DNA of 64,000 nucleotides from Candidatus Shapirobacteria bacterium (GTDB lineage: Bacteria; Patescibacteriota; Microgenomatia; UBA12405). The DNA is taken from positions 161,275 through 225,274 of the forward strand of contig JAUYJS010000008.1 of assembly GCA_030698565.1 (NCBI GenBank). The letters run 5' to 3'. A program made the position numbers and the translations under genes. Positions 7,903 through 50,772 of this stretch are shown here, piece by piece; position 1 is the first letter of the stretch, and each line of letters begins with the position of its first letter. A model generated the notes under the pieces. That model saw only the letters and a list, made by a program, of their open reading frames with translations. It did not search any database and was not told the origin of the DNA.

Positions 7903-7967
7903 TCTTATATAATATCTTAAAACGCCTGCTTCTGGCCAGATCTTATTTATTTTGCTAAACTTCCGCC

Positions 7968-28458: not shown

Positions 28459-30255
28459 GTGGACAACCAGGTCGAAGAAATCAAGCAAAAACTGGACATA
28501 GTTACGGTAATATCAAAATATTTACCTCTTAATAAGCGCGGTCGACATCACCTAGCTTGTTGCCCATTTCATCAGGAAAAAACACCATCATTTACAGTTT
28601 CTACCGAACTTCAAATTTTTAAATGTTTCGGTTGCGACAAAGCCGGTGATATTTTTAATTTTGTTCAGGAGTATGAAAGAGTTGATTTTCGTGAAGCTTT
28701 ACAGATTTTAGCCAAGCAGGCTGGTGTAACTTTAGTTCAAAATACTCACCTAAGTCAGGAAGAAGCCCAGCATAAAACTTTAATTAGTATCAATTCCCAA
28801 TTAGCCGAATTTTATAATTACGTTTTATTAAACCATCCTCTGGGCAAAATTGCCCTTGATTATGTTCTAAACCGGGGGATAAAACCGGAAATTATCAAAA
28901 AATTTAAAATCGGGTTTGCTCCTACCAACTCGCAGCTACAAGTTAATTTTCTTTTAAAAAAGAAATATAATTTGCCAGATTTAATTGCCACTGGTACTTT
29001 TGGCCAAAGTCATTATGGCGGCAACCAGCTTTACGATCGTTTTCAGGGTCGTTTAGTTTTTCCTTTAACTGATTATCGGGATCGAATCTTGGGCTTTGCC
29101 GGTCGGGTATTGCCCGGCAGCGCCGGTTCCAATTCTGCCAAATATATTAATTCACCAGAAACTGCCATTTATCACAAAAGTCAGATGCTTTTTGGCCTAA
29201 ACTTAGCCAAAGAAGCTATTCGTAAAAGCAACTCTGTGATAGTCGTAGAAGGGGAATTTGACATGATTTCGCCTTATCAAATCGGAGTAGAAAATATTGT
29301 GGCCCTAAAAGGTACGGCATTTACCCAAGATCAACTGCAATTGCTTCATCGTTATACTGACACTATAATTTTGGGTCTTGATTCTGATTTCGCCGGCAAC
29401 AATGCCGCCAGAAAAAGCATAGAAATGGCTGATTCTTTGGATTTCGACATTCAAGTTCTAATATTAGGTGAAAAATACAAAGATCCCGATGAAGCCGTCA
29501 AAGCTGATCCAGAATTTTTTAAAGCTCAATTACAAAAAACTATTCCCGTCTGGGATTTTATTATTCAAACAGCAGTTAAAAATTTCGATATCAATACCGT
29601 CAAAGGCAAAAAGCAGGCCCTAGAGATGGTTTTGCCATTTTTAGTTAAAATCAAAAATACGGTTATTAAAACAGATTATTTTCGTAAACTGGCGTTTGAA
29701 ATTAGTTCCGATGAAATGTCTGTGGCTCAGGAAGCCGCTAGATTGGGTAGCCCTTCGTATTCGGCCGCTCATGTCAAAATTCAGCCTCAAGTCGATGAAG
29801 TTATTAATCTCGTCAAAAACCCTAAATTAGAGGAAGCCCTTATAAATTTGATTCTTGGTGCCAGAAAGCCACTTCTTTTAGCCAAAAAAATGGAGCATAT
29901 AATCAACGGCTTTGCCACAACCAAGCTTCAACCTATAATTTCTCTCTTAATCACATCAACCGATTTTGAACCTTTAACTTTTCAAGAACAACTACCGGCC
30001 GAGATCCGTCACTACTTTCAAACTCTATTTTTAAATGCAACTTCAGAACCCATGGATCCCCATAGAAGAATGCTAGAGGTCAAAAAGATAGGAATTCAAA
30101 TTGAAACGATTAACCTCAAAGAAAGGCTAAATTTATTAAGTCAACAGATAGCTTTGATGGAAAAAAACGAACAAAACGAGGAATTAAACAAGGTAGAATT
30201 GGAGTATAATCAGATTTTATTGAAACTATCCCAAATTCAAAGCAAAAAAAGCTAG
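28459..30255 (+). CDS. dnaG: DNA primase DnaG (GTG start)
   Basis: Zinc-binding CPFHQEKTPSFTVS...CFGC; Toprim VVEGEFDM and DSDFAG. Confidence 0.85.
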   Translation: MDNQVEEIKQKLDIVTVISKYLPLNKRGRHHLACCPFHQEKTPSFTVSTELQIFKCFGCDKAGDIFNFVQEYERVDFREALQILAKQAGVTLVQNTHLSQEEAQHKTLISINSQLAEFYNYVLLNHPLGKIALDYVLNRGIKPEIIKKFKIGFAPTNSQLQVNFLLKKKYNLPDLIATGTFGQSHYGGNQLYDRFQGRLVFPLTDYRDRILGFAGRVLPGSAGSNSAKYINSPETAIYHKSQMLFGLNLAKEAIRKSNSVIVVEGEFDMISPYQIGVENIVALKGTAFTQDQLQLLHRYTDTIILGLDSDFAGNNAARKSIEMADSLDFDIQVLILGEKYKDPDEAVKADPEFFKAQLQKTIPVWDFIIQTAVKNFDINTVKGKKQALEMVLPFLVKIKNTVIKTDYFRKLAFEISSDEMSVAQEAARLGSPSYSAAHVKIQPQVDEVINLVKNPKLEEALINLILGARKPLLLAKKMEHIINGFATTKLQPIISLLITSTDFEPLTFQEQLPAEIRHYFQTLFLNATSEPMDPHRRMLEVKKIGIQIETINLKERLNLLSQQIALMEKNEQNEELNKVELEYNQILLKLSQIQSKKS

Positions 30256-30288: not shown

Positions 30289-31374
30289 ATGGTTGTCACT
30301 CTAGACTTTTCAAAGATTAAAAAAACATTAGTAGCTCAGGCTAAAAAGCTTCACTATCTCACAAATGAAGAAATTATAGGCCAAGTTCCAGAGCCAGAAA
30401 AATACATTCCTCAGCTCGATGATCTCTTCGATTACCTGTTTGAACAAGGGATTGATGTTTTCGACAAGGTAGAATCCAAAGAAATTATAGAAATAGAAAA
30501 GGAAAAATTAAGCTCTTCCGATTTTCTAAATCTTTTAACTCAAAAAGCCAATGTTGATTCGGTTAGGATGTATCTAAAAGAAATCGGTAAAATCGACCTT
30601 TTGAATTTTGACGAAGAAGTTAGATTAGCCAAAGCTATTGAAAAAGGTTCTGCAGATGCTCGGGAAAAATTAATTAATGCCAATTTAAGATTAGTTGTTT
30701 CTATCGCCAAAAAATATATCGGTCGCGGTTTAACTTTCCTCGATTTGGTTCAGGAAGGTAACCAGGGTTTAATGCGGGCAGTCGAAAAATTTGACTGGAA
30801 GCGCGGCTTTAAATTTTCTACCTATGCCACTTGGTGGATTCGCCAAGCTATTACCCGTGCCATTGCCGATCAGGCCAAGACTATTCGTATCCCCGTCCAT
30901 ATGGTCGAAACTATCAACAAAGTTTACAAGGCCACTCGGGCTCTCACTCAGCGCTTAGGCCACGAACCAGAAATCGAGCAAATTGCCGAAGAAGTCGGCA
31001 TCACTGTTGAAAAAGTCGAAGAAATTTATAGAATTTCCCAGGATACTACCTCGCTTTCTACTCCAGTAGGCGACGATGAGGATTCATTTTTGGGAGATTT
31101 TATTGAAGACACTACTCAGCCATCTCCCTATGAAGAAACTTCCAAAGAATTACTTCGTGAATCTATTGAAGAAGTTTTGGGTTCTTTAGACGAAAGGGAA
31201 ATGAAAGTTTTAAGTCTTCGTTTTGGTCTGATGGGTGAGACTCCAAAAACTCTAGAAGAAGTCGGCAAAATTTTCAACGTCACTCGCGAGCGTATTCGCC
31301 AAATCGAAGCCAAGGCTTTGCGAAAACTCCGCCATCCTAGTCGTAGAAAAAAACTCCAAGATTATTTGGAATAA
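30289..31374 (+). CDS. rpoD: RNA polymerase sigma-70 factor (primary sigma)
   Basis: Region 2 [37 protein letters not shown]...[13 protein letters not shown]; region 4 [27 protein letters not shown]. Confidence 0.85.
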
Positions 31375-31466
31375 AATAACTTTTCTGGAATCGGCCGAAA
31401 TACAAGACAGTATTAATATTACACAATATATTTTAATATTTGGTATTTTTGTGTACAATTCTAAAT

Positions 31467-34400
31467 ATGAATTGTATATATGACACGTTTACAAATCTCT
31501 ATTCATTATCAAAAACACTTAAATTTGAACTTATACCAGAACCAGCTACTCTTAAAATACTTAAAGAAAAACAAATAATTCAAAAAGATTTTGAGCTTAA
31601 TGAAAATTATCAAAAAGTAAAGCCAATTTTTAATCAGATTCATTCAGAATTTATAGAAGAAAGTTTAGGTTCAGCCGTTAACAGCCAAATTAATTGGAAT
31701 GAATATTTTGAGATTTATAAAATAGGAAAAAATGAAAAAGATAAAGCTAAATTAGATAGTCTTAGAAAAGAGAAAACATTAATTGAAAAAAAACTTCGAA
31801 GTGAAATAACTAAATTGTTTAATGTTACCTCCGAAAAATGGAAATCAAATCCCGAATATGTAGACGATAGAGGAAAATGCTTATTTAAAAAAAATGGGCC
31901 TGAAATTCTGGCAGAAAAAGGAATTTTAAAACTTTTATATATCAAATATCAAAACAAATCAGGATTGGAATTATTAAAAAGTTTTGATTCATTTTTTACA
32001 TATTTTTCTGGATTTAATCAAAATCGAGAAAACTATTATTCCAGTGATGAAAAATCAACAGCTATTAGTTATCGTATTGTTCATGAAAATTTACCTAAGT
32101 TTTGTGAAAATTTATTAGATTATCAAAATAAAATTAATCAAAACATTACTATTGATAATCTAGATATCTTCGATATTAATTATTTTAATGAATGTCTGTC
32201 CCAGAAAGGAATAAATAAATATAACCAAGCAATCGGCGGATTTCGAGATGAATCAGATATAGCTAGCTTTAAAGTCCAAGGTATTAATGAAAAAATAAAC
32301 TTATATTTTCAAAAAACAAAGCAAAAACTTCCCAAGCTCAAATTTTTATATAAACAAATTGGTGTAATCCAAGAAAAGAAAGAGTTGTTTTTTTTAATTG
32401 ACGGTCACGACCATACTTTAAAAAACACACTAGAATTGTGTTTAAAAGAAAGTACTCTATATAACCAAAGAATAAATGATCTCGTTTGTTCAATTTTGAG
32501 GGCCGAAAACTTAGATCAAATATACCTTTCTAAAGCTGCATTAAACACTATTCAAAGAAAGTACTTCAATAATTGGCAGGTTGTCGAGGATGAATTTATA
32601 AATCAAAAATTATTTACCAAAAAGAAAAATAAAGAGGAAATCAGACTAACTATTCCAGAATTTATATCAATCGATAAATTCAAATTTGTATTTAATAATT
32701 TATCTGAAATAGACGCAAAAGATATTTTCAAAGAAAAATATCAAAACTTATTCATATTAAAAAACAAGTTTGATATTTTTGTAAAAATTATCGAACAAGA
32801 ATTCTCTTGGAATTATTTAGAATTTAATCAATCATTAGAAAATAAAAAATTATTTAGTGATAGCGAATGGAACAGGGTTACTTGGGTATTAGCTAAAACT
32901 AATCTTGAAAAAATTATCAACAATTTAAGTGAAAAACCAGATACTGAACAAAAAAATATTATTAAAACATTTTTAGATTCTTCATTAGTATTGTTACAGA
33001 TGCTTAAGTACTTTAAGATTAAAGAATCAGGGGTAGGTATCGTAAATTGGGATGGTGATTTTTATAATGAGTTAGACAATATCACACAAAGTTATCCACT
33101 GTTTAAGTGGTATGATGCAGTTCGCAATTATTTAACAAGAAAACCGTTTTCTGAAGATAAAATAAAAGTTAATTTTGAAAAAGGCAATTTACTTGGTGGT
33201 TGGCCAGATAGTCCAGAAGGTAATACTCAATATGGAGGTTTCATTTTTAGAAAAAATAACAACTATTTCTTAGGCATATCGCAAGACGCGAGACTATTTG
33301 ATCTAACAAAAAATCCAAATTCTCACAATAATGATGGCTCGTTTGAAAAAATGGATTTAAAACAATTAGACGGAAAAACGATATATGGATCAATTTATGG
33401 TGGTAAATACCAAACAAAATATGCCAAAGATAAGGATAATATTTCAAACTATGAATTGATAAAAAGAGTTAAAGATATTCTAAAAGAAAAAAGCACGTAT
33501 TTTCCACAATTAAATCAAATTATTGATGGTGATTTTGACGACCCAAAAAAACTTGCTACAGAAATTTCTTCAAAAACTTTATATTCAATAGACTTTTTTA
33601 AAGTTAGTGAAAATTATATTAACGAAGTTACTAGTCGAACCAACAAACCTCTTTATTTATTTAAAATATCCAATAAGTATCTTAAAAATTCAAACCAAAA
33701 TAATAAAAATAACTTACACACTAAGTTTTTTTTAAAACTTTTTGAAAAACAAAACAACGAATCTCTATTTAAGCTGTGTGGTGGGGGAGAAATATTCTTT
33801 AGAAAAGCATCTGTTGATCAAAAAATAGATGAATCTAGAAAAACATCGATTAAAATAGTCAAAAACAAAAGATATACAGAAGATAAGTATTTTTTTCATG
33901 TACCAATTGCGCTAAATGCAACTAAGCCGGGTTATTATAAAGATTTTAATAAAAGAATTAATGAAGATTTGATAGGCAATAAAAATAATGTTCATATTAT
34001 CGGTATTGATCGAGGAGAAAAGCATTTAGCTTACTATTCAGTCATCAACCAAAAAGGAGAAATTGTTGAACAAGGTTCGTTAAATAAAGATTTATTAGGT
34101 AAAGATTACGGTGAAAAACTTGAATTTATTGCAAAAGAAAGAGAAAAAGCCAGAGAAAATTGGGATCAAATTAATAAAATAAAAGATTTGAAAGATGGTT
34201 ATATCTCACAAGTTACAAAGAGAATCTCTGACCTGGTAATAAAACATAATGGTATTGTAGTTTTTGAAGATCTAAACTCAGGATTTAAAAGAGGTCGTCA
34301 AAAAATAGAAAAATCAGTTTATCAAAAACTAGAACTTGCTCTAATTAAAAAACTTAATTATTTAGTTGATAAAAATAAGCACGACGGAGAAACATTATCA

Positions 34401-35180
34401 GTCACCAACGCTTTACAGCTTACACCCCCAACTGATAATTTTGGAGAAATAAAAGGGAAACAATGGGGAATCATTTTTTATACAACAGCAGCCTATACAT
34501 CAGTTACTGACCCTATTACTGGTTTTAGAAAAAATATATATCTTAAAAAATCAGCAAAGAATATCATGCGAGAAAATATTTTAAAGTTAGACAATATAAT
34601 TTTTGATCAAAATAATTTATGTTTCCGTTTTGATTATTCATTAAATAAGTTTCAAAAAGATACTAGTAATAAAAAATGGAGTTGCTATACCCATGTTGAT
34701 CGAATATGTAATGAATACGATAAAAAAATAAATAAATGGGTCCCAACCTCAATTTGCCTCACAGAAAAATTAAACGATCTTTTTAAATCAGAGAATATAG
34801 ATATTAATAAAAATATTATTGAACAAATAAAAAACAAAGAAAATCTAAACAATAAATTTTATGAAGACTTAACTTTCTACATTAATTTACTATTTCAACT
34901 TAGAAATTCCAATTCTTCAAAAGAGATTGATTTTATTTACTCTCCAATAGAACCCTTTTTTGACAGCAGAAAATATCAACAAGAAGGTCAAAATCTTGAT
35001 TTTACAGAGAAAGCCAAATTACCTGTTCATGGGGACTCAAACGGTGCTTACAATATTGCTCGCAAGGGCTTAATAATGTTTAAAAGAATTAAACTAACTC
35101 CAGATAAGCCTGATCTTTTTATTGGAAATGAATATTGGGATTGTGTAGCGCAGAATTGGGAGGAATTTATAAGATCATAA
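31467..35180 (+). CDS. cas12a: Cas12a (Cpf1), type V-A CRISPR effector (1237 aa from ATG 31467)
   Basis: N-terminal FTNLYSLSKTLKFELIP; RuvC-I IIGIDRGEKHLAY; RuvC-II IVVFEDLNSGFKRGR; RuvC-III HGDSNGAYNIARKG; matching Cas12a repeats downstream. Confidence 0.9.
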   Translation: MNCIYDTFTNLYSLSKTLKFELIPEPATLKILKEKQIIQKDFELNENYQKVKPIFNQIHSEFIEESLGSAVNSQINWNEYFEIYKIGKNEKDKAKLDSLRKEKTLIEKKLRSEITKLFNVTSEKWKSNPEYVDDRGKCLFKKNGPEILAEKGILKLLYIKYQNKSGLELLKSFDSFFTYFSGFNQNRENYYSSDEKSTAISYRIVHENLPKFCENLLDYQNKINQNITIDNLDIFDINYFNECLSQKGINKYNQAIGGFRDESDIASFKVQGINEKINLYFQKTKQKLPKLKFLYKQIGVIQEKKELFFLIDGHDHTLKNTLELCLKESTLYNQRINDLVCSILRAENLDQIYLSKAALNTIQRKYFNNWQVVEDEFINQKLFTKKKNKEEIRLTIPEFISIDKFKFVFNNLSEIDAKDIFKEKYQNLFILKNKFDIFVKIIEQEFSWNYLEFNQSLENKKLFSDSEWNRVTWVLAKTNLEKIINNLSEKPDTEQKNIIKTFLDSSLVLLQMLKYFKIKESGVGIVNWDGDFYNELDNITQSYPLFKWYDAVRNYLTRKPFSEDKIKVNFEKGNLLGGWPDSPEGNTQYGGFIFRKNNNYFLGISQDARLFDLTKNPNSHNNDGSFEKMDLKQLDGKTIYGSIYGGKYQTKYAKDKDNISNYELIKRVKDILKEKSTYFPQLNQIIDGDFDDPKKLATEISSKTLYSIDFFKVSENYINEVTSRTNKPLYLFKISNKYLKNSNQNNKNNLHTKFFLKLFEKQNNESLFKLCGGGEIFFRKASVDQKIDESRKTSIKIVKNKRYTEDKYFFHVPIALNATKPGYYKDFNKRINEDLIGNKNNVHIIGIDRGEKHLAYYSVINQKGEIVEQGSLNKDLLGKDYGEKLEFIAKEREKARENWDQINKIKDLKDGYISQVTKRISDLVIKHNGIVVFEDLNSGFKRGRQKIEKSVYQKLELALIKKLNYLVDKNKHDGETLSVTNALQLTPPTDNFGEIKGKQWGIIFYTTAAYTSVTDPITGFRKNIYLKKSAKNIMRENILKLDNIIFDQNNLCFRFDYSLNKFQKDTSNKKWSCYTHVDRICNEYDKKINKWVPTSICLTEKLNDLFKSENIDINKNIIEQIKNKENLNNKFYEDLTFYINLLFQLRNSNSSKEIDFIYSPIEPFFDSRKYQQEGQNLDFTEKAKLPVHGDSNGAYNIARKGLIMFKRIKLTPDKPDLFIGNEYWDCVAQNWEEFIRS

Positions 35181-35734
35181 TGGATGGATTAATTCAAATT
35201 TCTAAAATAAATGATTTTTTATTTTGTCCTATGTCGTTATACAACCATAGTATTTATGAGAGCTTTGATCAAAAAATGTTTCATAGTAAATACCAAACCA
35301 TTGGCAAAATCAAACACGAAAGCATTGATAATGGCAAATACTCTTCGTTAAAAAGATTTTTGCAAGGGAATACTGTCTATTCACAAAAGTACAATATTAT
35401 CGGAAAAATAGATATTTATGATACTAAAACAAAATCACTTATTGAAAGAAAATTTAAAATTAACCATATATATAAAGGATATGTCTATCAGCTAATTGCT
35501 CAATATTTTTGTCTGGTTGAAAAAAACATATCTGTCGAGCACTTATTCTTACACTCACTTAAAGACAATAAAAGATATGAGGTGAATCTTCCTGACCAAA
35601 TAGTTGAAGCTGATTTTAGTTTATTTTTAAGAAAGATTAGAAATTTCAATCCAAATCAAATAACTTTCGTTGCTGAGAAGAAAAAATGTTTACAATGTAT
35701 TTATTCAACTTTGTGTAATTACAATCCATGCTAA
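35180..35734 (+). CDS. cas4: Cas4 (RecB-like nuclease with 4-Cys Fe-S cluster)
   Basis: ATG overlaps cas12a TAA (TAATG); N-terminal Cys (FLFCPM) plus C-terminal CLQCIYSTLC; IDIYD...LIERKFK nuclease motifs. Confidence 0.8.
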   Translation: MDGLIQISKINDFLFCPMSLYNHSIYESFDQKMFHSKYQTIGKIKHESIDNGKYSSLKRFLQGNTVYSQKYNIIGKIDIYDTKTKSLIERKFKINHIYKGYVYQLIAQYFCLVEKNISVEHLFLHSLKDNKRYEVNLPDQIVEADFSLFLRKIRNFNPNQITFVAEKKKCLQCIYSTLCNYNPC

Positions 35735-36687
35735 CTTTCCCAGATTTTTCACAAAAGAGAATAGTTATTGTTGGTAATAATGGCAATGTCACCAGCAATC
35801 TAAAATTCTATAATAGCAATATCCGATTATATTACGGGGAAAAATTTATTGATCAAGTTTCCTGTTACTCAGTTATATGTTTATTTATTGTCGGAGACAC
35901 CACCTTAACCACAAAATTAATTAAAAAAGCTAAAGAGTATGGAATTTCAATTTTTTTACTTAGCAATAATTTAAAAAACTATGCAGAAATATTTTCCAGT
36001 GCCGAGGGAAATTATAAACTGAGACAGAAACAATACCAGACATCTGAGCAAAGTGAGTTGGTGCTATCAAGACTTATTGTAAAAAACAAAATTAAAAACC
36101 AACTCCTCCTCTTGCAGGAAAAAAATATCAATGAATTTAATAAAAAATTTAATTCTATTCTTGAAAATATAGACAGTGTAGATGACAGACAACTACTACT
36201 TGGAATAGAAGGAAATACTTCAAGTCTTTATTTTGGCGCAATTTATAAAGACCATGATTGGCATAGGCGAGCACCACAAGCAAAAGAAGATCCGTTAAAC
36301 CTATTGCTTGATGTTGGTTATACTCTTATTTTTAACTATATTGACTCAGTACTTCATCTTTTTGGTTTTGATACCTACAAAGGTTTTTATCATAAACTAT
36401 TTTTTGAACGCAGATCACTAAGCTGCGACATGATGGAACCTCTTAGACCAATAATTGATCGGCAAATATTAAAGATGTTTAACTTAAAACAAATTAATGA
36501 AAAAGATTTTTATTTGAAGGATTGCTCATATTCATTTAAAGATTTTGAATCAGCCAATAAATATTCTAATCATATCTTAGAAGCAGTCTTAAAACAAAAG
36601 GAACCAATCTATGATTTCGTTTACTCATTTTATCGCCATATTCAGGAACCAGAAAAACATAATTTTATTGAATTTAGCCCGCTATGA
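35728..36687 (+). CDS. cas1: Cas1 integrase
   Basis: 319 aa, position and size; overlaps cas4 stop and cas2 start. Confidence 0.8.
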   Translation: MLTFPDFSQKRIVIVGNNGNVTSNLKFYNSNIRLYYGEKFIDQVSCYSVICLFIVGDTTLTTKLIKKAKEYGISIFLLSNNLKNYAEIFSSAEGNYKLRQKQYQTSEQSELVLSRLIVKNKIKNQLLLLQEKNINEFNKKFNSILENIDSVDDRQLLLGIEGNTSSLYFGAIYKDHDWHRRAPQAKEDPLNLLLDVGYTLIFNYIDSVLHLFGFDTYKGFYHKLFFERRSLSCDMMEPLRPIIDRQILKMFNLKQINEKDFYLKDCSYSFKDFESANKYSNHILEAVLKQKEPIYDFVYSFYRHIQEPEKHNFIEFSPL

Positions 36688-36965
36688 TAATCGTTGCATA
36701 TGATTTTGTATCAAACAAAAAACGTGCTAAGTTTTCTAAGTTTTTAAAGCAATACGGTGAAAAAATTCAATATTCAGTTTACAAAATAAAAAATAGTGAT
36801 CGTGTTTTAAACAATATAATTAGCGAAATTGAACATAAATATGAAAGAACCTTTGACAATACTGATAGTATCTTCCTATTTCGGGTCTGCCAACGATGCC
36901 AGAAATCATTGAAACTTTATGGCAACGCAAAACATCATCGAGAAAATGTGGTAAACTTGGGTTAG
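36684..36965 (+). CDS. cas2: Cas2
   Basis: 93 aa; MIIVAYDFVSNKKRAKFSKFLKQYGEKIQYSVY typical Cas2 N-terminus. Confidence 0.8.
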   Translation: MIIVAYDFVSNKKRAKFSKFLKQYGEKIQYSVYKIKNSDRVLNNIISEIEHKYERTFDNTDSIFLFRVCQRCQKSLKLYGNAKHHRENVVNLG

Positions 36966-37159
36966 AACTTTAAAAATACGACAAAATAGAAGTTATTGTG
37001 CGTAATTAAAACCTAAGTCTTTATTTTTCTTTAAAAATAGAGCAAATTATAAAATTAGACCATATATAAGGGTAATTTTATATCTATCATTATATGGATA
37101 AAGTCCTAAAAATAAAATTTTTAGTTGCATCTTTTTCCCATAAGATAGGTAAACCAGCT

Positions 37160-37570
37160 CCTAATTACGAATATTAAATTTCTACTTTTGTAGATATTTA
37201 AGCCATCTTCTATAACCTTTTCCTAATTACGAATATTAAATTTCTACTTTTGTAGATGGTAACTCTAGTGCTTATAGTGTTGTAGCCTAATTACGAATAT
37301 TAAATTTCTACTTTTGTAGATATTGTGTAACCAGTCAAATAAGACTTTCCTAATTACGAATATTAAATTTCTACTTTTGTAGATTCTAGGTGTTTAGTGG
37401 TTTGGGTTGCCTAATTACGAATATTAAATTTCTACTTTTGTAGATTACTCGTGGTGCATACCCTGAATTAGACCTAATTACGAATATTAAATTTCTACTT
37501 TTGTAGATACTAATGTAATAAAAAGTATTACCATCCTAATTACGAATATTAAATTTCTACTTTTGTAGAT
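37160..37570 (+). CRISPR. CRISPR array, 7 repeats of 36 bp (CCTAATTACGAATATTAAATTTCTACTTTTGTAGAT), 6 spacers of 25-28 bp
   Basis: Repeats at 37160, 37222, 37286, 37349, 37410, 37473, 37535, all identical; 3' end AATTTCTACTTTTGTAGAT is the canonical Cas12a crRNA handle; AT-rich leader 36966..37159. Confidence 0.95.
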
Positions 37571-37596
37571 TAATATTCATTTTTTTCTATTTAATA

Positions 37597-37716
37597 GAAG
37601 AAGTCGGCAAAATTTTCAATGTTACTCGCGAGCGTATTCGTCAAATCGAAGCCAAAGCTTTAAGAAAATTAAGACATCCCTCGAGAAGAAAAAAACTCCA
37701 AGATTATTTGGAATAA
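37597..37716 (+). pseudogene. relic duplicate of the last 39 codons plus stop of rpoD (direct repeat of 31255..31374)
   Basis: 120 bp with about 12 substitutions versus 31255..31374, all synonymous; in-frame translation [39 protein letters not shown] is identical to the RpoD C-terminus. Confidence 0.85.
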
Positions 37717-37896
37717 ATACTTCAGCCTTAATAATTTCAATGCTATAATCAAGCTTATCAATCCATCCTTTAATAGAGCCTGGTTTAACTCGCACATTTA
37801 AATATATTTTTCTTTTAGATTAATATTCCCAACGTAATTTCGACTTTGTCGAAAAACGTTGTTGGAACGTTAATTTTTCGAAGAAAAATTTTACGT

Positions 37897-38018
37897 TCCC
37901 CTGTAGCCTTTATCATTCCGTAGCCTTGGCGAAGGATGATCAATGGTAGAGGAAAATATTCCCCTGTAGCTCAATGGTAGACCTGCCTGCCGGCAGGCAG
38001 GGCGCCCGCCTGTTAAGC
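37897..38018 (+). repeat. two tandem partial copies of the tRNA-Asn 5' portion, each with an internal insertion
   Basis: Copy i 37897..37950 = TCCCCTGTAGC + 32-bp insert + TCAATGGTAGA; copy ii 37960..38018 = tRNA nt 1-22 + 20-bp perfect palindrome CCTGCCTGCCGGCAGGCAGG + tRNA nt 23-39. Confidence 0.7.
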
Positions 38019-38024
38019 TTATTC

Positions 38025-38309
38025 ATGTACTTTGTTTACATCTTGAAAAGTTTAAAAACAGACGAGCTCTATAAAGGTATTACCAATGACTTACAAAGAA
38101 GGATTATTGAGCATAATTCAAATAAGAATATCGGCTCCCGTGGTAAAGGGCCATGGCGATTAGTATATTTTGAAGAACACTCAAATCGAATTGAAGCCAG
38201 AAAACGAGAAAAATATTTTAAGTCCGGTTCTGGCCGGGAATTTTTAAAAATCATACTAAACACAATCCCCTGTAGCTCAATGGTAGAGCGCCCGCCTGTT
38301 AAGCGGTAG
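38025..38309 (+). CDS. small GIY-YIG nuclease-domain protein (about 95 aa from ATG 38025)
   Basis: MYFVYILKSLKTDELYKGITNDLQRRIIEHN...GPWRLVYFEEHSNRIEARKREKYFKSGSGREFL = GIY-YIG/URI domain (Y-V-Y, R, E, N); stop lies 44 nt inside the tRNA-Asn gene. Confidence 0.65.
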   Translation: MYFVYILKSLKTDELYKGITNDLQRRIIEHNSNKNIGSRGKGPWRLVYFEEHSNRIEARKREKYFKSGSGREFLKIILNTIPCSSMVERPPVKR

Positions 38310-38337
38310 GTTCGAGGTCCGAATCCTCGCGGGGGAG
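38266..38337 (+). tRNA. tRNA-Asn (anticodon GUU)
   Basis: TCCCCTG-TA-GCTC-AATGGTA-GAGC-G-CCCGC-CTGTTAA-GCGGT-AGGT-TCGAGG-TCCGAAT-CCTCG-CGGGGGA-G; U33, GTT, A37; starts UCC... like E. coli tRNA-Asn. Confidence 0.75.
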
Positions 38338-39900
38338 CAAAGCGGAACACTCAGGTTCCGAAGAAGCATAATACTTGGAAACTTTCGTTAAATCATACTG
38401 TTCGAAAATTTCTTTATCGTTATTCATCAATTTTTCTATATTCGAACTATTTGTTCGTTTAGCTAGTGCTAAAAGAGATTTAAATCCCGGTGTTAATGTG
38501 TAGAATACCTTGTCAATATCAAGTTCAATAGTGTCGAATACTTTTTTCATCAATTGTCTTTTCTCATTCGGTTCGACTTTTAAAAACGACGCCTTACCGT
38601 TCTGAGAAATCTCGTAAATTCTTACTCCCAGATCAGTAGTTTTTTGTATCGCCTCTGTTTGTTTGACAATATGTTTATCCAGCTCCGTTAAGTCACCGGA
38701 GAACTTTTTAGCAAGAATGTTGTATTGATCTTCCGAAATCTTACCATCCAACTTATCAATATATGCTTCACTTAATCTATTAGTGTAAATTTTTCTCGAT
38801 TTTTCTAATTCCTTTACCGAATCAAGATACAAGTCGGATTCGCTATTGTTCGTTTCTTTTAATGCCTTTTTCAGCCACTCTCTAACTTTTAGGCTGTCAA
38901 TTTTAAACTCATCGAGTACATTTCCAATACATTCTTCCACAACAATTTCCTTTGACCATTTTCGCTTAGGGCAATTTCGGTAATGATTACAATGGCCGTA
39001 CATTATTCCCTTGGCCTGTTCCCAGGTAATTGTTCCGTGACATTCATGACACTTAAAAACGCCTTTAAATTTGTAGTCATGTTTGCTGTATTTTGGGGTA
39101 TTCTTTGAACTAAGTATCCTTTGAACTTTATCAAACAGTTCTCGATCAATGATGGGTTCTTGTTTACCTTTGTGAATTTCACCTTTCCACATAAAGTCGC
39201 CTATATAAAACGGATCTCTCAGCAGCCGATGCATCCGACTCTTATGGACCAGCTTACCACTATCACTTTTCATACCTAATGTGTGCATTTCTTTGGATAA
39301 TTTAAGTATGGAATAAGTGCCGGTCCCATACAACTCAAACATCTTTTGGAGAATTGACGCAACTTCCGGATTAACCACATGAATTTTATGACCTTGTTCG
39401 CCTATTGTTTTATAACCATAAGGTGGTTTGGTAGGCAACCACCCTTCGCTTATCTTTTCCTTCTGACCTTTCTTTACCTCTTCACTTAGATTATCTAAAT
39501 AATACTGAGCCACTGATACTTTGATATTCCAAATAAACTTCTCGTTAGATTTAGAATTTTTATGTAGAATCACATTCTCTTTCACAAAATGAACCTGTTT
39601 TTCTTCATCATCTTCAATCCATTGGTTGATAATAACAGCGTCCCTAATGTTTCTTGTAAGCCGGTCGGTTTTTTCTACAACTAAGTTCTTTATTTTTTTT
39701 GATCTCAAATAATCCAACATTTCTTCAAAGAGCTTTCTTTGTTTGCTTCCGCCTGCTGACTCAGAAAGCGAAAACACCCTATCTATTTGAAGTCCTTTTG
39801 ACTGACAATACTCCGTTAATAATTTTTCCTGGGAGGGGAGAGAATAGCCTGTTTCTTCTTGCTCCTTAGAACTGACCCTACAAAGTAATACTGTTTTCAT
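38299..39900 (-). CDS. large serine recombinase (phage/ICE-type serine integrase)
   Basis: N-terminal resolvase catalytic domain MKTVLLCRVSSKEQ (Ser nucleophile), recombinase domain, Cys-rich zinc ribbon CHECHGT...CNHYRNC, coiled-coil C-terminus; 3' end overlaps tRNA-Asn 3' end. Confidence 0.85.
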   Translation of the reverse strand: MKTVLLCRVSSKEQEETGYSLPSQEKLLTEYCQSKGLQIDRVFSLSESAGGSKQRKLFEEMLDYLRSKKIKNLVVEKTDRLTRNIRDAVIINQWIEDDEEKQVHFVKENVILHKNSKSNEKFIWNIKVSVAQYYLDNLSEEVKKGQKEKISEGWLPTKPPYGYKTIGEQGHKIHVVNPEVASILQKMFELYGTGTYSILKLSKEMHTLGMKSDSGKLVHKSRMHRLLRDPFYIGDFMWKGEIHKGKQEPIIDRELFDKVQRILSSKNTPKYSKHDYKFKGVFKCHECHGTITWEQAKGIMYGHCNHYRNCPKRKWSKEIVVEECIGNVLDEFKIDSLKVREWLKKALKETNNSESDLYLDSVKELEKSRKIYTNRLSEAYIDKLDGKISEDQYNILAKKFSGDLTELDKHIVKQTEAIQKTTDLGVRIYEISQNGKASFLKVEPNEKRQLMKKVFDTIELDIDKVFYTLTPGFKSLLALAKRTNSSNIEKLMNNDKEIFEQYDLTKVSKYYASSEPECSALLPREDSDLEPTA

Positions 39901-43607: not shown

Positions 43608-45326
43608 ATGGTAAATATAAATGAATATGCAAACTTTATTTGGTCGGTAGCTGATACTTTAAGAGGCGATTACAAACAAGCTGACTACGGAAAAGTGATT
43701 TTACCTTTGACTGTTATCAGGAGACTAGATAGTGTTCTTTCAGATACCAAGGAAAATGTATTAAAAAGCTATGAATCCCAAAAAATAACCAATCTTCAAG
43801 AAGCTGATTTAGTACTCAATAAAATTGCCGGATACAAATTCCATAACCATAGTAAATTTGATTTTAGTAAATTGATTTCGGACCCGGATAATATCGTTTC
43901 AAATTTGAGAAATTACATTAACGGATTTTCCGAAAATGCCAGAGATATTTTAGAAAACTTTGAATTCGACAAAGAGATTCATAAACTGGATAAAGCCAAT
44001 CTCCTTTATCAAGTTGTAAAACAATTTCAGGAAATTAACTTACATCCCAGCAAAATAAATAATCATGAAATGGGTTATTTGTTTGAAGAACTGATCAGAA
44101 AGTTTGCTGAAGCATCAAATGAAACCGCCGGAGAACATTTCACACCCAGAGAAGTTATCAAGTTGATGGTCAACATCCTTTTTATTTCTGATAGTAATAT
44201 CCTTCGTGGTGACGGAATTATTAAAACCCTTTATGATCCTGCCTGTGGAACTGGTGGCATGATGTCGGTTGCTGAAGAGTATTTAAAAGAACTCAATCCA
44301 GACGCTAGACTTGAACTATTTGGACAAGAACTTAACCCAGAGTCTTATGCTGTTTGTAAGTCCGACATGTTGATAAAAGTTCAAGACCCGGACCACGTAA
44401 AATTGGGTGATACTTTGAGGAATGATCAGTTAAGGACCGAAAAATTTGATTACATGCTTTCAAATCCTCCGTTCGGAGTTAATTGGAAAAAGGCGGAGAA
44501 AGAAGTTAAGCAAGAATACGAGGATCTAGGATTTGGAGGAAGGTTTGGGGCTGGTCTTCCTAGTATCAGCGATGGATCAATGCTTTTTCTTCAACACATG
44601 GTTTCAAAAATGAAACCCACCAATGGAGGTTCCCGACTAGCGATTGTATTTAATGGCTCTCCACTATTCTCTGGTAGTGCTGGTAGTGGTCCCAGCGAGA
44701 TTAGAAGATGGATTATTGAAAACGATATGCTCGAAGCAATAATCGCTCTTCCGGACCAACTTTTTTATAACACCGGTATTTCTACATACATATGGGTTGT
44801 AACGAACAGAAAATCCATCGAAAGAAAAGGAAAGGTCCAGCTTATAAATGCTGTCTCATCCTATAAGGTGATGAGAAAGAAACTAGGCGATAAAAGAAAT
44901 GAAATAGGAACCGAGGATATTGATAAAATTGTCAGCTTATATGGGGAATTTAGTGATTCAAAATTCTCAAAGATATTTGATAATTCTGATTTTGGATATT
45001 CCCAATTAACAGTCGAAAGACCACTCAAAGACGAAAAAGGAAACATTATTAAAGACACAAAAGGCAAACCAAAAGCCGATCCTAAATTAAGGGACTCCGA
45101 AAATGTTCCATTAAAAGAAGATATTCAAGAATACTTCAAAAGAGAGGTGGTCCCATTTGTTCCAGATGCCTGGATAGATGAATCCAAAACTAAAGTTGGC
45201 TACGAAATCAATTTCACTAAGTACTTTTACGAGTATAAGCCACTTCGATCACTTGAAGAGATAACTAAAGACATTTTGGAATTAGAAAAAGAAAGTGATG
45301 GGTTATTGAAAGAAATTACTAAATAA
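43608..45326 (+). CDS. hsdM: type I restriction-modification system, methyltransferase subunit HsdM
   Basis: N-terminal HsdM_N; motif I DPACGTGGM; motif IV LSNPPFG. Confidence 0.9.
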   Translation: MVNINEYANFIWSVADTLRGDYKQADYGKVILPLTVIRRLDSVLSDTKENVLKSYESQKITNLQEADLVLNKIAGYKFHNHSKFDFSKLISDPDNIVSNLRNYINGFSENARDILENFEFDKEIHKLDKANLLYQVVKQFQEINLHPSKINNHEMGYLFEELIRKFAEASNETAGEHFTPREVIKLMVNILFISDSNILRGDGIIKTLYDPACGTGGMMSVAEEYLKELNPDARLELFGQELNPESYAVCKSDMLIKVQDPDHVKLGDTLRNDQLRTEKFDYMLSNPPFGVNWKKAEKEVKQEYEDLGFGGRFGAGLPSISDGSMLFLQHMVSKMKPTNGGSRLAIVFNGSPLFSGSAGSGPSEIRRWIIENDMLEAIIALPDQLFYNTGISTYIWVVTNRKSIERKGKVQLINAVSSYKVMRKKLGDKRNEIGTEDIDKIVSLYGEFSDSKFSKIFDNSDFGYSQLTVERPLKDEKGNIIKDTKGKPKADPKLRDSENVPLKEDIQEYFKREVVPFVPDAWIDESKTKVGYEINFTKYFYEYKPLRSLEEITKDILELEKESDGLLKEITK

Positions 45327-45329
45327 ATA

Positions 45330-46622
45330 ATGACTTATAAATCAGACACCTCGACTTGGAATACTAAAAAATTGAAGTATGTTACTTGTATCAATTCAGA
45401 GGTGCTAAGAGAAAATAAAGATAAAGAGCAAGAAATAAGTTATATAGACATCAGTTCGGTAAATTCAGACGGTAGAATTAAAAAAATCGAGAAAGTCAAA
45501 TTTGGAGTAGCACCTTCAAGGGCAAGAAGAATCGTTAAGAAAGGGGATGTGATTATATCAACCGTAAGAACTTATTTAAGAGCCATTGCTTCCATTAAAG
45601 AAAACATTGATGATTTAATTGTATCTACTGGTTTTGCTGTATTACGAGCCGGAAATGAAATATCACCAGATTTTCTGAAATACGCTATATTAAATCCAGA
45701 TTTTATCGACAAGATAATGGCTAACTCAAAAGGAGTAAGCTATCCTGCAATTAGTAGTTCTGACTTGGCAAACTTGGCAATTTCGTACCCGTACAAAAAG
45801 GAAACACAAGATTTAATAAGTAGATACTTAAATTATAAAACCTCTCTTATAGACTCCTTAGTTCAAAAAAATGAAAAACTAATTAAACTTTTGGAAGAGA
45901 AAAAAGCAGCAATTATTAGTCAGACCATAACAAAAGGGTTAAATACGGATGTCGAGATGAAAGACAGTGTAGTTGAATGGGTTGGAAAAATACCAAAAGT
46001 GTGGAAAGTGGAGCCAGTTTCTTTAAACTTCAAAGAGAATAAAATCAAGAATAGTAATCTCCAAGAGAAAAATTTACTCTCACTTAGTTACGGAAAAATT
46101 ATAAAGAAAAACATTCTTTCAAATTTCGGTTTATTACCAGAATCGTTCTCAAATTACCAAATAGTTGAAAAAGATTGCATTATATTAAGACTTACAGATC
46201 TTCAAAACGATAAAAGAAGTTTAAGAGTAGGCTACGTACCTGAAAGAGGAATAATTACATCCGCTTATATTGGTCTAACCCCAAAAAGCAATCTAAATTC
46301 CAAATATATTTATTACTTGCTTCACAGTTATGATTTAAAGAAAGTGTTTTATAACTTAGGTTCTGGTGTAAGACAAAGTTTAACTTACTTTGATTTTAAA
46401 AAGCTTCCATTGATTATCCCTACAAGTGAAGAGCAAGAAAAAATTGTGGAGCATGTTGAGGTAGGGATAAGAAAAATTAGTGATTCAATTAACTATATTG
46501 ATAAGCAAATAAAATTATTAGAAGAATATCGCAAAACACTTATCTCAAATGTGGTCACTGGAAAAACTGATGTTAGAGATGAAAAAATTCCAGAAAGTGG
46601 GATAAAATACAACTATGCCTAA
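45330..46622 (+). CDS. hsdS: type I R-M specificity subunit HsdS (two target-recognition domains)
   Basis: 430 aa, follows hsdM by 3 bp; two TRD-like halves separated by the conserved central coiled-coil. Confidence 0.8.
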   Translation: MTYKSDTSTWNTKKLKYVTCINSEVLRENKDKEQEISYIDISSVNSDGRIKKIEKVKFGVAPSRARRIVKKGDVIISTVRTYLRAIASIKENIDDLIVSTGFAVLRAGNEISPDFLKYAILNPDFIDKIMANSKGVSYPAISSSDLANLAISYPYKKETQDLISRYLNYKTSLIDSLVQKNEKLIKLLEEKKAAIISQTITKGLNTDVEMKDSVVEWVGKIPKVWKVEPVSLNFKENKIKNSNLQEKNLLSLSYGKIIKKNILSNFGLLPESFSNYQIVEKDCIILRLTDLQNDKRSLRVGYVPERGIITSAYIGLTPKSNLNSKYIYYLLHSYDLKKVFYNLGSGVRQSLTYFDFKKLPLIIPTSEEQEKIVEHVEVGIRKISDSINYIDKQIKLLEEYRKTLISNVVTGKTDVRDEKIPESGIKYNYA

Positions 46623-49600
46623 TATATTAAATGAAAATACTTTTGAAACTAACATTGTTGAGAAACTAGTTTCAAGTTGTGGTTATATTGAAGGCAATCC
46701 TGTCGATTTCATTCCTGATCTGGCAATCGATACCAATCAACTATTCTCTTTTTTACTCGACTCCCAATCGAACGAAATTGACCAGCTAATCAAGGTACAT
46801 GGGGAAGATGAGTATCAGGACCGACTGATCCAACGGTTAATTAAAGAGTTAGATTTGCGGGGGACTCTTGATTGTTTGCGAAACGGTATTACTGATTATG
46901 GTGTCCATCTTAATCTTGCTTATTTCAAACCGGAATCTAGCCTCAATCAGGAGACCAAAGAAAAATATGATCAAAACATTATCTCCGTTACTCGCCAGGT
47001 CCACTTTAGTGAAAAAGACCCTGATAAATCTGTCGACCTGGTATTGTTTATCAATGGTTTACCTGTCGCTACTGCTGAATTAAAAAACCCATTTACTGGA
47101 CAGAATGTAGAAAATGCTCAGAAACAATATATTTACACCAGAGATGTCCGAGAATCACTTTTTCAATTCAAAAAAAGAGCTCTAGTCCATTTTGCCGTTG
47201 ATCCTAATTTGGTCTATATGACTACTCAACTCAACGGTGAAAATACTAAGTTTTTGCCTTTTAATAAGGGTCTAAATAATGGAGCTGGTAATCCATCAGT
47301 CGAATCCGGTTACCAAACATCATATCTTTGGGAAGAGGTCTGGAGTAAGGATGGCTGGATGGATATTATTGCCAAATATATTCACCTAGAGAAAAAAGAA
47401 ATAAAAACCGAAGGAAAAATAATTACTAAAGAGAAAATAATCTTTCCTCGTTACCACCAGCTTGATGTAGTGAGAAAGTTGGTTAACGATACCAAAAGAA
47501 GTGGAACTGGAAAAAATTACTTAATTGAACATAGTGCCGGAAGTGGAAAGAGCAACTCGATTGCTTGGTTGGCTTATCGTCTTGCAAATTTACATAATGA
47601 TTTAGATCAACCTGTTTTCGATTCAGTTGTCGTAGTTACCGACAGGGTGGTCCTAGACAAACAACTTCAAGATACGATTTATCAGTTTGATCATAAGCAA
47701 GGTGTTGTTCAAAAGATCGACAAAGATTCTGCCCAATTAGCTGATGCATTGAAGAAAGGGATCAAAATCATCATCACTACTGTTCAAAAGTTCCCCTTTG
47801 TTTTGGATCAAATTGACGAGTTGGAAGCCAAAAAGTATGCTGTAATTGTAGACGAAGCCCACGGTTCACAAGGCGGAGAAACTAGTAAACAGATGAAAGA
47901 AGTTTTGACTTTTGGTCTACACGAATCAGAAGAGTCATCGAATTTAGAAGAACCTGAAACGGCCGAAGATGAAATTAGAAAATCAATGGCATCTAGAGGT
48001 AAACAGTCAAATCTTTGTTTTTATGGATTCACCGCTACTCCTAAAGCGAAAACTCTAGAAGTCTTTGGTGAAGTTGGCAAAGACGGCAAACCCAGACCAT
48101 TCCATCTCTATTCAATGAGACAAGCCATTGAGGAAGGTTTCATTCTTGATGTCTTAAAAAGCTACACTACCTACAAAACCTATTTTCGGTTGTCCAAAGA
48201 AATCGAAGAAGATCCGGAAATAAGTAAGGATAAGGCCAATAGAGCCATCGCCCGATTCCTCTCACTACATCCGCATAATTTATCTCAAAAGACTGAAGTA
48301 ATGGTTGAACACTTCCGAAGAGTCACTATGAAAAGAATTGGTGGTAAAGCTAAGGCTATGGTAGTAACTAGTTCACGGATGCATGCAGTTAGGTACTACC
48401 TCGAATTTAATAAGTACCTAAAAGAAAAAAACTACACTGACATTAGAACTCTCGTCGCTTTTTCCGGTACTGTTATCGACAAAGATTCTGGAGCTGAATA
48501 CAAAGAAGTAGAAATGAATGGTTTTAGAGAGAAAGAACTACCAGAAAAATTCAATGCCGACGAATACAAAATACTGTTAGTCGCCGATAAATATCAAACA
48601 GGTTTCGATCAACCCTTACTCCATACCATGTATGTTGATAAAAAATTGTCAGGTGTAGCTGCTGTCCAAACATTATCAAGATTAAATCGAGTTGCTCCCG
48701 GAAAAGAAGATACCTTTGTCTTGGATTTTGTGAACGACCAAGCAACAATTTACGAATCTTTTCAACCTTATTACGAGCTGACTTCTCTTGAAGAAACTGC
48801 TAACCCAAATCATCTTTATGATCTAAAACACCAGTTAGAAGAAACCGGAATTTTCTGGCAATCAGAGGTTGATAGTTTTTCAAAGGTATTCTTTAAGCCT
48901 AAACAAACCCGAGCTGATCAAGCTGAACTTTACAGACTAATTCAACCAGCTATAGAAAGATATATTGCACTTGATGAAACAAAAAAAGAGGAATTTAAAA
49001 AGATGTTGACTGCCTTTATTAGAACCTACGCTTTTCTTTCCCAGATCATGCCATTCACGGATACTCAACTGGAAAAACTTTATGTTTTTGCCCGATTATT
49101 GAGAAATGCTTTACCTAGAAAAAATAATAATAACTTGGAGTTAAATGATGAGATTGCTTTGCAGTATTACAAACTTCAAAAAATTTCAGAGGGATCAGTT
49201 GAGCTATCAAAAGAAGGGGAGGTAAATCTCCCTGGAATAATGGGTGACTCTGGCAATGCTTCCACTGGTGAGGATGAAAAATCCAAACTATCAGAAATAA
49301 TCAAAACATTAAATGACAGGTTCGGAACTGAATTTAGTGAAGCAGACAAACTTTTCTTTGACCAAATTGAAGAAGAGTTGATTGCAGATCAAAAACTCCA
49401 AAAACAAGCATTAAACAACGAGATCGGTAATTTCAAATATGGTTTTAATGAAGTCTTCGTCGATAAAATCATTGACCGGATGGAGCAGAATCAGGAAATC
49501 TTTAACAAGATTATGAATAATCCTGACTTTAAAGCAGTTGTTTCCGATTGGATGCTCAAAAAGGTCTACAAAAAACTTAGTCAAAAAGTATCTATAAAGT

Positions 49601-50070: not shown

Positions 50071-50772
50071 ATGGATAATGATAAAGCCCCAAAATCAGGT
50101 GTAGTATATATTCTCATCAATGATGCCATGCCTGGCTATATCAAAATCGGCATAACCCAAACCTCCGTTGAACAAAGAGTAAAAGAACTTTCACGGACAT
50201 CAGCGGTCCCCATTCCCTTTGAATGTTACTTTGCAGTTCGTGTGGCTGATGTCCGACGAGTCGAAGCTGCTATCCATAATGCTTTTGGAGATCACCGAAG
50301 AAATCCTAAAAGAGAATTTTTTCAGCTCGCACCAGAACGAGTTGTCCCTATTTTAAAATTATTAGCGATTGAAGAAGTACATATTTCAGTAGATGCTGGT
50401 GTCGAAAATAAAGCAGACGCCCAAGCCTTAGAGCTGGCCCATAAAAGGAGAGCAGCCTTTAATTTCGAAATGGCCCAAATTCCAATAGAGTCTGAACTGA
50501 AATTCATTCGTAATGAAGAAATAACTTGTTCAGTTGCACCTGATCAAAAACATGTGATATTTAATGGCGAAACGATGTCTGTTTCTTCTGCTGCCCAAAA
50601 AGCCTTAAATAGTAAATGGCAGGTTCAAGGTCCGGCTTACTGGACCTATGAAGGAGAAATTCTTGACGAAAGACGAATAAGAATAGAGGCTGGAATTCCC
50701 ACTGACAAAGAAATCGAAGAAGCGGGGGATTATTGGATGAATCTACAAGATGAAATTGCAAGGGGTAAATAA
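50071..50772 (+). CDS. T5orf172 (GIY-YIG-related) plus DUF4357-type protein
   Basis: GVVYILINDAMPGYIKIGIT...RVKELS...PFECYFAV = T5orf172/MUG113 domain; ATG directly abuts the hsdR stop; locally higher GC. Confidence 0.6.
   Translation: MDNDKAPKSGVVYILINDAMPGYIKIGITQTSVEQRVKELSRTSAVPIPFECYFAVRVADVRRVEAAIHNAFGDHRRNPKREFFQLAPERVVPILKLLAIEEVHISVDAGVENKADAQALELAHKRRAAFNFEMAQIPIESELKFIRNEEITCSVAPDQKHVIFNGETMSVSSAAQKALNSKWQVQGPAYWTYEGEILDERRIRIEAGIPTDKEIEEAGDYWMNLQDEIARGK

Follow-up and report, generated by a model that had tools for sequence, protein, structure and literature searches.

How does a complete CRISPR-Cas locus come to lie between two copies of the end of an essential gene? The question is raised by a 64,000-nucleotide stretch of a metagenome-assembled genome (MAG) of Candidatus Shapirobacteria, a group within the candidate phyla radiation (CPR, or Patescibacteria; assembly GCA_030698565.1, contig JAUYJS010000008.1, positions 161,275 to 225,274; hereafter 'the window', numbered from its first letter). 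Here a type V-A CRISPR-Cas12a locus starts just downstream of rpoD, the gene for the primary sigma-70 factor, and is followed by a second, diverged copy of the rpoD 3' end. CRISPR-Cas systems are rare in CPR bacteria and their acquisition there is poorly documented; these bacteria are thought to depend on DNA uptake. We find that the two copies form a 123-nucleotide direct repeat, that all differences between them are synonymous and most fall in one short block, and that the intervening DNA is foreign to its host and carries no recombinase gene. With about even confidence, we read the repeat as the scar of an integrase-independent, homology-anchored recombination at the conserved rpoD end with DNA of a closely related lineage. 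The locus is a dated, base-level footprint of one CRISPR-Cas acquisition or rearrangement beside an essential gene.

The duplicated end of rpoD

The rpoD gene itself (30289..31374, plus strand, 361 amino acids) is intact, with Pfam matches to Sigma70 r1_1, r1_2, r2, r3 and r4, and lies downstream of dnaG (28459-30255, plus strand; open reading frame [ORF] listing and Pfam). The closest RpoD proteins, 86-89% identical, come from Candidatus Shapirobacteria MAGs, in agreement with the earlier view of this as a CPR genome. The exact RpoD sequence was found in run SRR13727534 only, and the best relatives reached 89% identity in genomes and 78% (over the N-terminus) in metagenomes.

Alignment, a repeat finder and exact comparison place the direct repeat at 31253-31375 (copy A) and 37595-37717 (copy B), 6342 nt apart and both on the plus strand. 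Copy A consists of the last 40 codons and the stop codon of the functional rpoD gene plus one further nucleotide. Copy B is a non-functional relic: its peptide is that of copy A, but a usable start codon is lacking (within its frame, upstream or inside the copied codons, the only ATG, GTG or TTG is a TTG three codons before the stop). The original prediction put this relic at 37597..37716, as 39 codons plus stop, immediately after the last CRISPR repeat; a copy is indeed present there and follows the array, but it extends to 40 codons plus stop and is set off from the last repeat by a gap of 24 nt. It is not part of an intact second sigma gene, as had also been stated, and what lies upstream of it is the CRISPR array.

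Over 39 sense codons (117 nt, 31255-31371 against 37597-37713) the copies differ at 16 nucleotides in 11 codons, rather than at the 'about 12' positions first estimated. Alignment and exact comparison agree with the earlier observation that every difference is synonymous, the 39-residue peptides and the TAA stops being identical. Several of the switches take more than one step (AGT to TCG for serine, CGN to AGA at three arginine codons and CTC to TTA for leucine), and the peptide was kept in 0 of 200,000 simulations of 16 random substitutions. Because all 16 changes are synonymous, the divergence between the copies did not arise by neutral decay, and the pattern shows both copies to derive from functional rpoD genes. 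A single substitution in the relic would be silent in only 20.8% of cases, yet its peptide is perfect, so that it can have accumulated at most about two mutations since its loss of function; the relic is young.

The synonymous-only pattern says nothing, however, of distant lineages. We compared the window with the rpoD loci of other Shapirobacteria, a set that includes 26 further family loci from a metagenome scan. The C-terminal 47 residues of RpoD are identical in 27 of 31 related loci, and the remaining four carry one conservative change each (K/R or E/D), never in the 11 codons that differ between our copies. The peptide is therefore essentially invariant in the family, and any family allele would differ only synonymously.

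Two perfect blocks around a dimorphic centre

More informative than the number of differences is their distribution. The repeat opens with a 25-nt block of perfect identity (31253..31277, plus strand, equal to 37595-37619) and closes with another of 31 nt (31345..31375, plus strand, equal to 37687-37717, ending one nucleotide past the stop codon). Between them, a hyper-divergent block of 31 nt (31314..31344, plus strand; relic counterpart 37656-37686) holds 13 of the 16 differences, and outside this block there are just three C/T transitions in 91 nt. Each of the end blocks is present exactly twice in the window, against a chance expectation of 0. For comparison we took 260 pairs of relatives with similar divergence in the central 67 nt of the repeat: 1.2% of these pairs had no differences in the left block, none was free of differences in the right block, and none in both. 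The identity blocks are thus improbable for random pairs from the family (P=7.6e-4). No relative shares either block exactly with the window.

The hyper-divergent block lies in rpoD region 4.2, where the whole family has two synonymous versions (TTA-AGA-AAA-TTA-AGA and CTY-CGN-AAA-CTY-CGY). The version that a locus carries is incongruent with its relatedness upstream, in that the pairs L089/L090, L085/L104 and L003/L083 differ in type (among related loci L003-L007 and L083-L108); L089 and L090 are mutual nearest neighbors upstream, at 10% divergence, and have 11 differences inside the block and four outside it. The dimorphic block has probably been exchanged by recombination, and the pattern suggests either that short tracts recombine between lineages or that this essential gene is under some constraint at the nucleotide level. 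An alternative model, in which the ends of the relic are native and its centre foreign, was dropped, the centre being the family-wide dimorphic block, which differs between close relatives too.

The outer blocks are identical, and 13 of the 16 differences fall in a block whose two versions can separate even close relatives. Most simply read, therefore, the copies would stem from lineages that are closely related, closer than any of the relatives sampled, and that carried alternative versions of the block. The original proposal that the copies come from functional rpoD genes of different lineages is thereby narrowed: the lack of neutral decay and the different histories stand, while the lineages appear close and the differences are unevenly distributed. 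In Shapirobacteria, recombination among close lineages would, on this evidence, reach into rpoD itself.

The Cas12a locus between the copies

The cas12a start codon (ATG at 31467) lies 92 nt past the rpoD stop, just as had been noted, and the 91-nt spacer between copy A and cas12a (31376..31466, plus strand) contains a promoter-like site (31404-31432). A promoter/terminator scan gave no terminator-like site between rpoD and cas12a. The cas12a gene (31467..35180, plus strand, 1237 amino acids; Pfam REC1, REC2 [cas_Cpf1_2nd], RuvC_1 and NUC) is followed on the same strand by cas4 (35180..35734, Pfam Cas_Cas4, start per the gene call on a Logan contig), cas1 (35728..36687, Pfam Cas_Cas1, E=1.6e-48), cas2 (36684..36965, Pfam CRISPR_Cas2), an AT-rich leader (36966..37159, assigned from its sequence and its position between cas2 and the first repeat) and the CRISPR array (37160..37570), which comprises seven identical 36-nt repeats (CCTAATTACGAATATTAAATTTCTACTTTTGTAGAT) and six spacers of 25-28 nt.

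These components bear out the earlier description of a complete type V-A system. The effector has a REC lobe, a tripartite RuvC domain (RuvC-I IGIDRGE, RuvC-II VFEDLN, RuvC-III GDSNGAY) and a Nuc domain, it adjoins cas4-cas1-cas2, and it matches solved Cas12a structures at E=4e-152 to 1e-105. The consensus Cas12a CRISPR RNA handle is AAUUUCUACU-N-GUAGAU, at the 3' end of the repeat; the repeats of this array end in AATTTCTACTTTTGTAGAT, in the orientation of the cas genes, and so carry a handle of the type V-A kind. The terminal repeat is perfect, with no degeneration. The protein is identical to an entry (P0001) that NCBI names as Cas12a of a Candidatus Shapirobacteria MAG (contig of 353.7 kb), and the next-best homologue among 5.8 billion proteins is only 42% identical. 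With so distant a nearest homologue the donor of cas12a cannot be placed, and the suggestion that Cas12a phylogeny would identify the donor lineage comes to nothing.

Spacer 4 (37385-37409) matches two IMG/VR contigs of about 40 kb each at 24 of 25 positions (UViG_3300035670_000489 and UViG_3300020045_006075; L124 at 2285-2309 on the minus strand and L125 at 8-32). On the 5' side of the protospacer stands GTTA in L124 and CTTA in L125 (that is, a 5'-TTA flank), which is consistent with a T-rich 5' protospacer adjacent motif (PAM) rather than proof of one, two related contigs being its only basis. From its intact RuvC motifs and a spacer that matches viral contigs with a 5'-TTA flank, the Cas12a system looks functional. 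The two contigs are candidate phages of this CPR bacterium. Exact matches in viral contigs were found neither for four of the other five spacers (spacer 1 was left out) nor for the 24 nt between the last repeat and the relic (37571..37594, plus strand), and no spacer matches the window itself at up to five mismatches. We also observed a 21-nt inverted match (19 of 21 positions, 90%) between 37576-37596, which overlaps these 24 nt, and a site in cas12a (31716-31736); it does not extend over the length of a spacer, and the complementarity is probably due to chance in AT-rich sequence.

Foreign origin of the island

Three lines of evidence bear on where the island came from. Cas genes downstream of rpoD are absent from all of the approximately 30 related rpoD loci; the GC content of the island is 25-30%, compared with 33-39% in the flanks; and the codon-usage scores of the island form a distribution separate from that of the host genes. 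Together these make horizontal acquisition of the island, already proposed in the original prediction, well supported.

The setting of the island in the family is otherwise regular. Upstream synteny is conserved in the relatives (three tRNAs, a XerC-like gene, dnaG and rpoD), and downstream the layout is rpoD, zero to two NUDIX or other small genes, a minus-strand His_Phos_1 gene and tRNA-Asn, with an rpoD-to-tRNA-Asn interval of 0.6-4.4 kb that varies in gene content. Relatives in which rpoD directly precedes tRNA-Asn, which had been expected, do not occur in this set, because His_Phos_1 and sometimes NUDIX genes stand between. The window has no His_Phos gene, and neither tblastn nor a profile hidden Markov model gave a significant signal for a remnant of one downstream of the relic.

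Relics of the rpoD 3' end occur in two of 111 rpoD loci, the window and a related Shapirobacteria metagenome contig (L101, Ga0247841_10002003, region 7440-8132), whose relic is independent of that in the window. In L101 the last 12 rpoD codons and the stop codon recur at 8094-8132, 0.6 kb downstream of the gene, with five differences that are again all synonymous. This second relic lies between His_Phos_1 (7480-8052, minus strand) and a 3.7-kb non-ancestral block before tRNA-Asn that contains a 230-residue ORF, a cupin, a major facilitator superfamily transporter and a nitroreductase. L101 is ambiguous in the same way as the window as to which of its neighbors the relic came with.

Support from a second assembly

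Could the repeat be an artefact of assembly, in which two Shapirobacteria strains that occur together were fused at rpoD k-mers they have in common? The genome is metagenome-assembled, and the 31-mer shared by the two copies is a branch in the assembly graph. A second, independent assembly is available in the k=31 unitigs (Logan) of run SRR13727534. One unitig (L001) stops exactly at 31375, another (L126) corresponds to window positions 31346-37188 at 100% identity, and a third starts inside tRNA-Asn. Since the unitigs break where the repeats of the window predict, the shared 31-mer and the adjacency of rpoD and cas12a are real in the second assembly too. The array-to-relic junction is not on record in the Logan gene look-ups, which leaves that junction without the same confirmation. 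A chimeric join would nevertheless have to account for a left relic edge at which the array meets rpoD codon 321 through the 25-nt block only, the array end and rpoD sharing no k-mers, for unitigs that are otherwise 100% identical, and for a relic of the same kind in L101, from a different assembly. We consider an artefact very improbable.

How the repeat arose

The near-identical end of rpoD, with its perfect blocks of 25 and 31 nt and only three differences in the 91 nt outside the dimorphic block, has the form of a high-identity anchor, and in the reading that we prefer it would have served as the homology arm. The incoming DNA may have entered either by a single (Campbell-type) crossover with a circularized fragment or by one homologous end together with one illegitimate join, inside or just after the CRISPR array; in either case the duplication would leave rpoD intact. 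Given a perfect terminal CRISPR repeat with no more than 24 nt between it and the relic, the break would lie within the array or at its end, and these 24 nt may be a truncated spacer, which would put the recombination joint inside the array. The sequence shows the structure, the foreign character of the island, its lack of a recombinase, the uneven divergence and the recurrence of a relic in one other genome; from these we infer both this mechanism and the identification of the Cas-island insertion as the event that made the repeat. The 6.2 kb between the copies contain no integrase, transposase or terminal inverted repeats: the only ORFs of at least 50 amino acids with Pfam matches are cas12a, cas4, cas1 and cas2, and the best end-related inverted pair given by the repeat finder is 21 nt long and lies inside cas12a. 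Site-specific target duplication, which the original prediction had offered as one explanation, is unlikely for an island so lacking in the means of it.

As to the relic, it may be the native rpoD end, displaced by the one that the island carried; it may be an rpoD fragment that the island brought along; or it may mark the left edge of a right-hand block imported later. The claim that the cassette arrived flanked by rpoD homology thus holds in so far as the island is foreign, but it is one of several readings, and a displaced native end or the edge of a right-hand block fits equally.

A number of observations weigh against our preferred reading, or at least limit it. Homologous recombination is inefficient on only 123 bp. 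By itself, one plain crossover with foreign DNA does not account for the perfect identity of the two repeat ends, for which a very close donor is required. We found no conspecific island-free genome: the nearest relative is at least 16.5% diverged in rpoD, with flanks that cannot be aligned, and this set accordingly offers neither an empty site, nor a donor, nor a joint that could be inspected for microhomology. The array-to-relic junction is known from one assembly only. No such repeat exists at the loci of the nearest Cas12a homologues (L120 and L121-123), so that the repeat is not a general property of Cas12a cassettes. Finally, the native copy is hard to single out. The codon-usage log-likelihood ratios of the two copies (+8.3 and +3.9; host windows 3.5±3.0, island windows -2.7±2.1) are host-type in both and do not tell the native copy apart, and both copies lie 12-35 of 117 positions from the 31 relatives, with no donor singled out by nearest-neighbor placement. 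The distances of copy A to the relatives do track the distances of the upstream gene (Spearman 0.41, p=0.023); the coherence test behind this slight hint that copy A may be native is itself weak and is confounded by the dimorphic 31-nt block.

The symmetry of the structure, in which the relic is tied no more to its left neighbor than to its right, also admits an account in which the relic has nothing to do with the arrival of the Cas genes. Cas12a would already have been downstream of rpoD when a block running from rpoD codon 321 of a close relative towards tRNA-Asn was later imported, with homology as its anchor at the tRNA-Asn end and, at the other end, an illegitimate join within the array or immediately past it, the relic being the left edge of this right-hand block. 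Such an import would fit L101, which keeps the ancestral rpoD/His_Phos junction and has its relic before the non-ancestral block that ends at tRNA-Asn; it would fit the host-type rather than island-type codon usage of the relic; and the perfect terminal repeat followed by 24 nt is what truncation of the array by an incoming block would produce. The right flank has, moreover, been rearranged repeatedly at tRNA-Asn, with two 5' pseudo-fragments and a GIY-YIG gene. What this account lacks is a recognizable ancestral His_Phos remnant, or other conserved sequence, to mark the flank as the region downstream of a relative's rpoD; it also leaves the arrival of the Cas locus still to be explained. We hold it to be a rather unlikely possibility.

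A third explanation makes the island a site-specific integrative element at the rpoD 3' end, with the gene restored by an attP-borne fragment and the integrase acting in trans or since lost (in the manner of a cis-mobilizable element, or CIME). Restoring the target with a gene fragment carried on attP is a standard strategy of such elements (PMC7192596), the repeat ends in perfect identity blocks, L101 has a second relic of this gene end, and 0.6 kb past the relic in the window there is a gene for a large serine recombinase. That recombinase, however, abuts tRNA-Asn and heads a separate defence island, and within the 6.2 kb between the repeats there is neither a recombinase nor, given the cas genes and array, space for a decayed one. 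The right boundary, a spacer's length past a CRISPR repeat, would be an atypical element end; the repeat lengths are unequal (123 nt here and approximately 42 nt in L101); none of the approximately 30 related loci has an integrase-bearing element at the site; and no viral contig carries an rpoD end of the Shapirobacteria type. Serine recombinases, for which a 2-bp crossover suffices, are not known to make long repeats. On balance we judge an integrative element improbable.

A bolder form of our preferred reading would make the rpoD 3' end a dedicated, integrase-free landing pad in Shapirobacteria. Circles bearing an rpoD-end arm, with cargo up to the size of an entire Cas12a locus, would pass between close relatives and would enter and leave the genome through RecA-type crossovers within the two identity blocks (25 and 31 nt); the essential gene would never be harmed, since all differences between the arms are synonymous, and the dimorphic block would act as a barrier that stabilizes the insert. 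We put this forward as speculation and doubt that it is correct.

Comparison with known systems

The canonical type V-A (Cas12a/Cpf1) loci are reportedly those of Zetsche in 2015, and in architecture the locus in the window is no different from them. It has the same order (cas12a-cas4-cas1-cas2-array), 36-nt repeats with the same ending, intact RuvC motifs and a putative T-rich 5' PAM; what sets it apart is a Cas12a so distant from its nearest database relative. CPR bacteria are already known to carry type V-A loci, some of them with two Cas12a genes in tandem (Chen et al. 2019, PMC6509639). As a side observation, the tandem Cas12a/Cas12a' loci of Roizmanbacteria in that report are resembled by L121 (10001-17205; also L122 and L123), where a distant Cas12a (39% identical) starts 124 nt after secA and is followed directly by a second RuvC-domain protein of 1153 amino acids and then by cas4, cas1 and an array. 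The secA end has left no relic at L121.

Integrative genetic elements insert in the 3' end of conserved genes and restore the gene by an attP-borne fragment (Mageeney et al. 2020, PMC7192596). Like them, the island in the window lies between direct repeats of a target 3' end, leaves the gene intact (the 123-nt repeat encodes the same peptide in both copies) and is sporadic among relatives. It differs in having no integrase in or beside it (the nearby serine recombinase belonging to another island), in a right end in or just after a CRISPR array and in the lack of integrase-bearing relatives at the site.

A further comparison is with insertions by homology-facilitated illegitimate recombination, a process that is said to have been described by de Vries and Wackernagel and by Prudhomme and coworkers, both in 2002. 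It has been proposed for additive insertions with orphan 3' fragments in Rhs, contact-dependent inhibition (CDI) and type VI secretion system (T6SS) effector loci (Kirchberger et al. 2017, PMC5361080). As in those insertions, a conserved gene segment serves as anchor, the event adds new DNA instead of exchanging it and leaves a displaced or duplicated 3' fragment, and there is no recombinase gene; here, by contrast, the anchor is an essential housekeeping gene and the cargo a complete CRISPR-Cas locus. Casposons and CRISPR-associated transposons (CASTs, which are Tn7-like) are likewise mobile DNA with cas genes, but the window has no terminal inverted repeats, family-B polymerase, tnsA/B/C or tniQ, and its diverged repeat of 123 nt is unlike their short target-site duplication. 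Islands flanked by gene-fragment repeats and homology-anchored additive insertion are thus already known, and we describe no new system type or mechanism. Specific to the window is the combination: the end of an essential sigma gene as the arm, a whole CRISPR-Cas locus between the repeats, no recombinase, and a relic that exposes recombination between close CPR lineages.

The right flank and a neighboring defence island

Beyond the relic, the right-hand flank (37718..38265, plus strand) holds two 5' pseudo-fragments of tRNA-Asn and a GIY-YIG ORF. The first fragment (37907-37952) is interrupted by a 32-nt hairpin-like insert, and the second (37960-38018) differs from the intact 5' half only in that a perfect 20-nt palindrome (CCTGCCTGCCGGCAGGCAGG) is inserted in the D-arm region. 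The GIY-YIG ORF (38025-38309, 94 amino acids) lies between the second fragment and the intact tRNA-Asn(GTT) gene (38266..38338, plus strand), into which it runs for 44 nt; this tRNA gene is the conserved right-hand landmark of the variable interval. Rfam and promoter/terminator scans gave nothing useful beyond tRNA-Asn, and a k-mer scan found no second copy of its 3' part in the window. The pseudo-fragments mirror the rpoD relic in that each is an insertion beside a partial copy of a conserved gene. In a related genome (L005, 824-1105), a GIY-YIG homologue with 40% identity is flanked by tRNA-Ile and tRNA-Met, which hints that minimal GIY-YIG genes associate with tRNA genes in the Shapirobacteria family.

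The large serine recombinase gene (38299-39900, minus strand) shares 40 nt with tRNA-Asn, at the 3' end of the latter, and heads an island of approximately 18 kb that is absent from the relatives. This island contains a type I restriction-modification system (43608-50070) with an HsdR fused to an SLFN/AlbA_2 domain, a PDC-S57/T5orf172 gene (50071-50772), Gabija GajA/GajB (50855-54540; E=4.7e-220 and 2e-100) and an HNH nuclease (54650-55561). With Cas12a, type I restriction-modification, Gabija and PDC-S57 side by side, the rpoD-tRNA-Asn neighborhood is a variable, defence-rich hotspot. Synteny with a related genome (L004) returns at an SNase gene (56957), and a second HsdM, with a MerR helix-turn-helix domain, follows at 57734.

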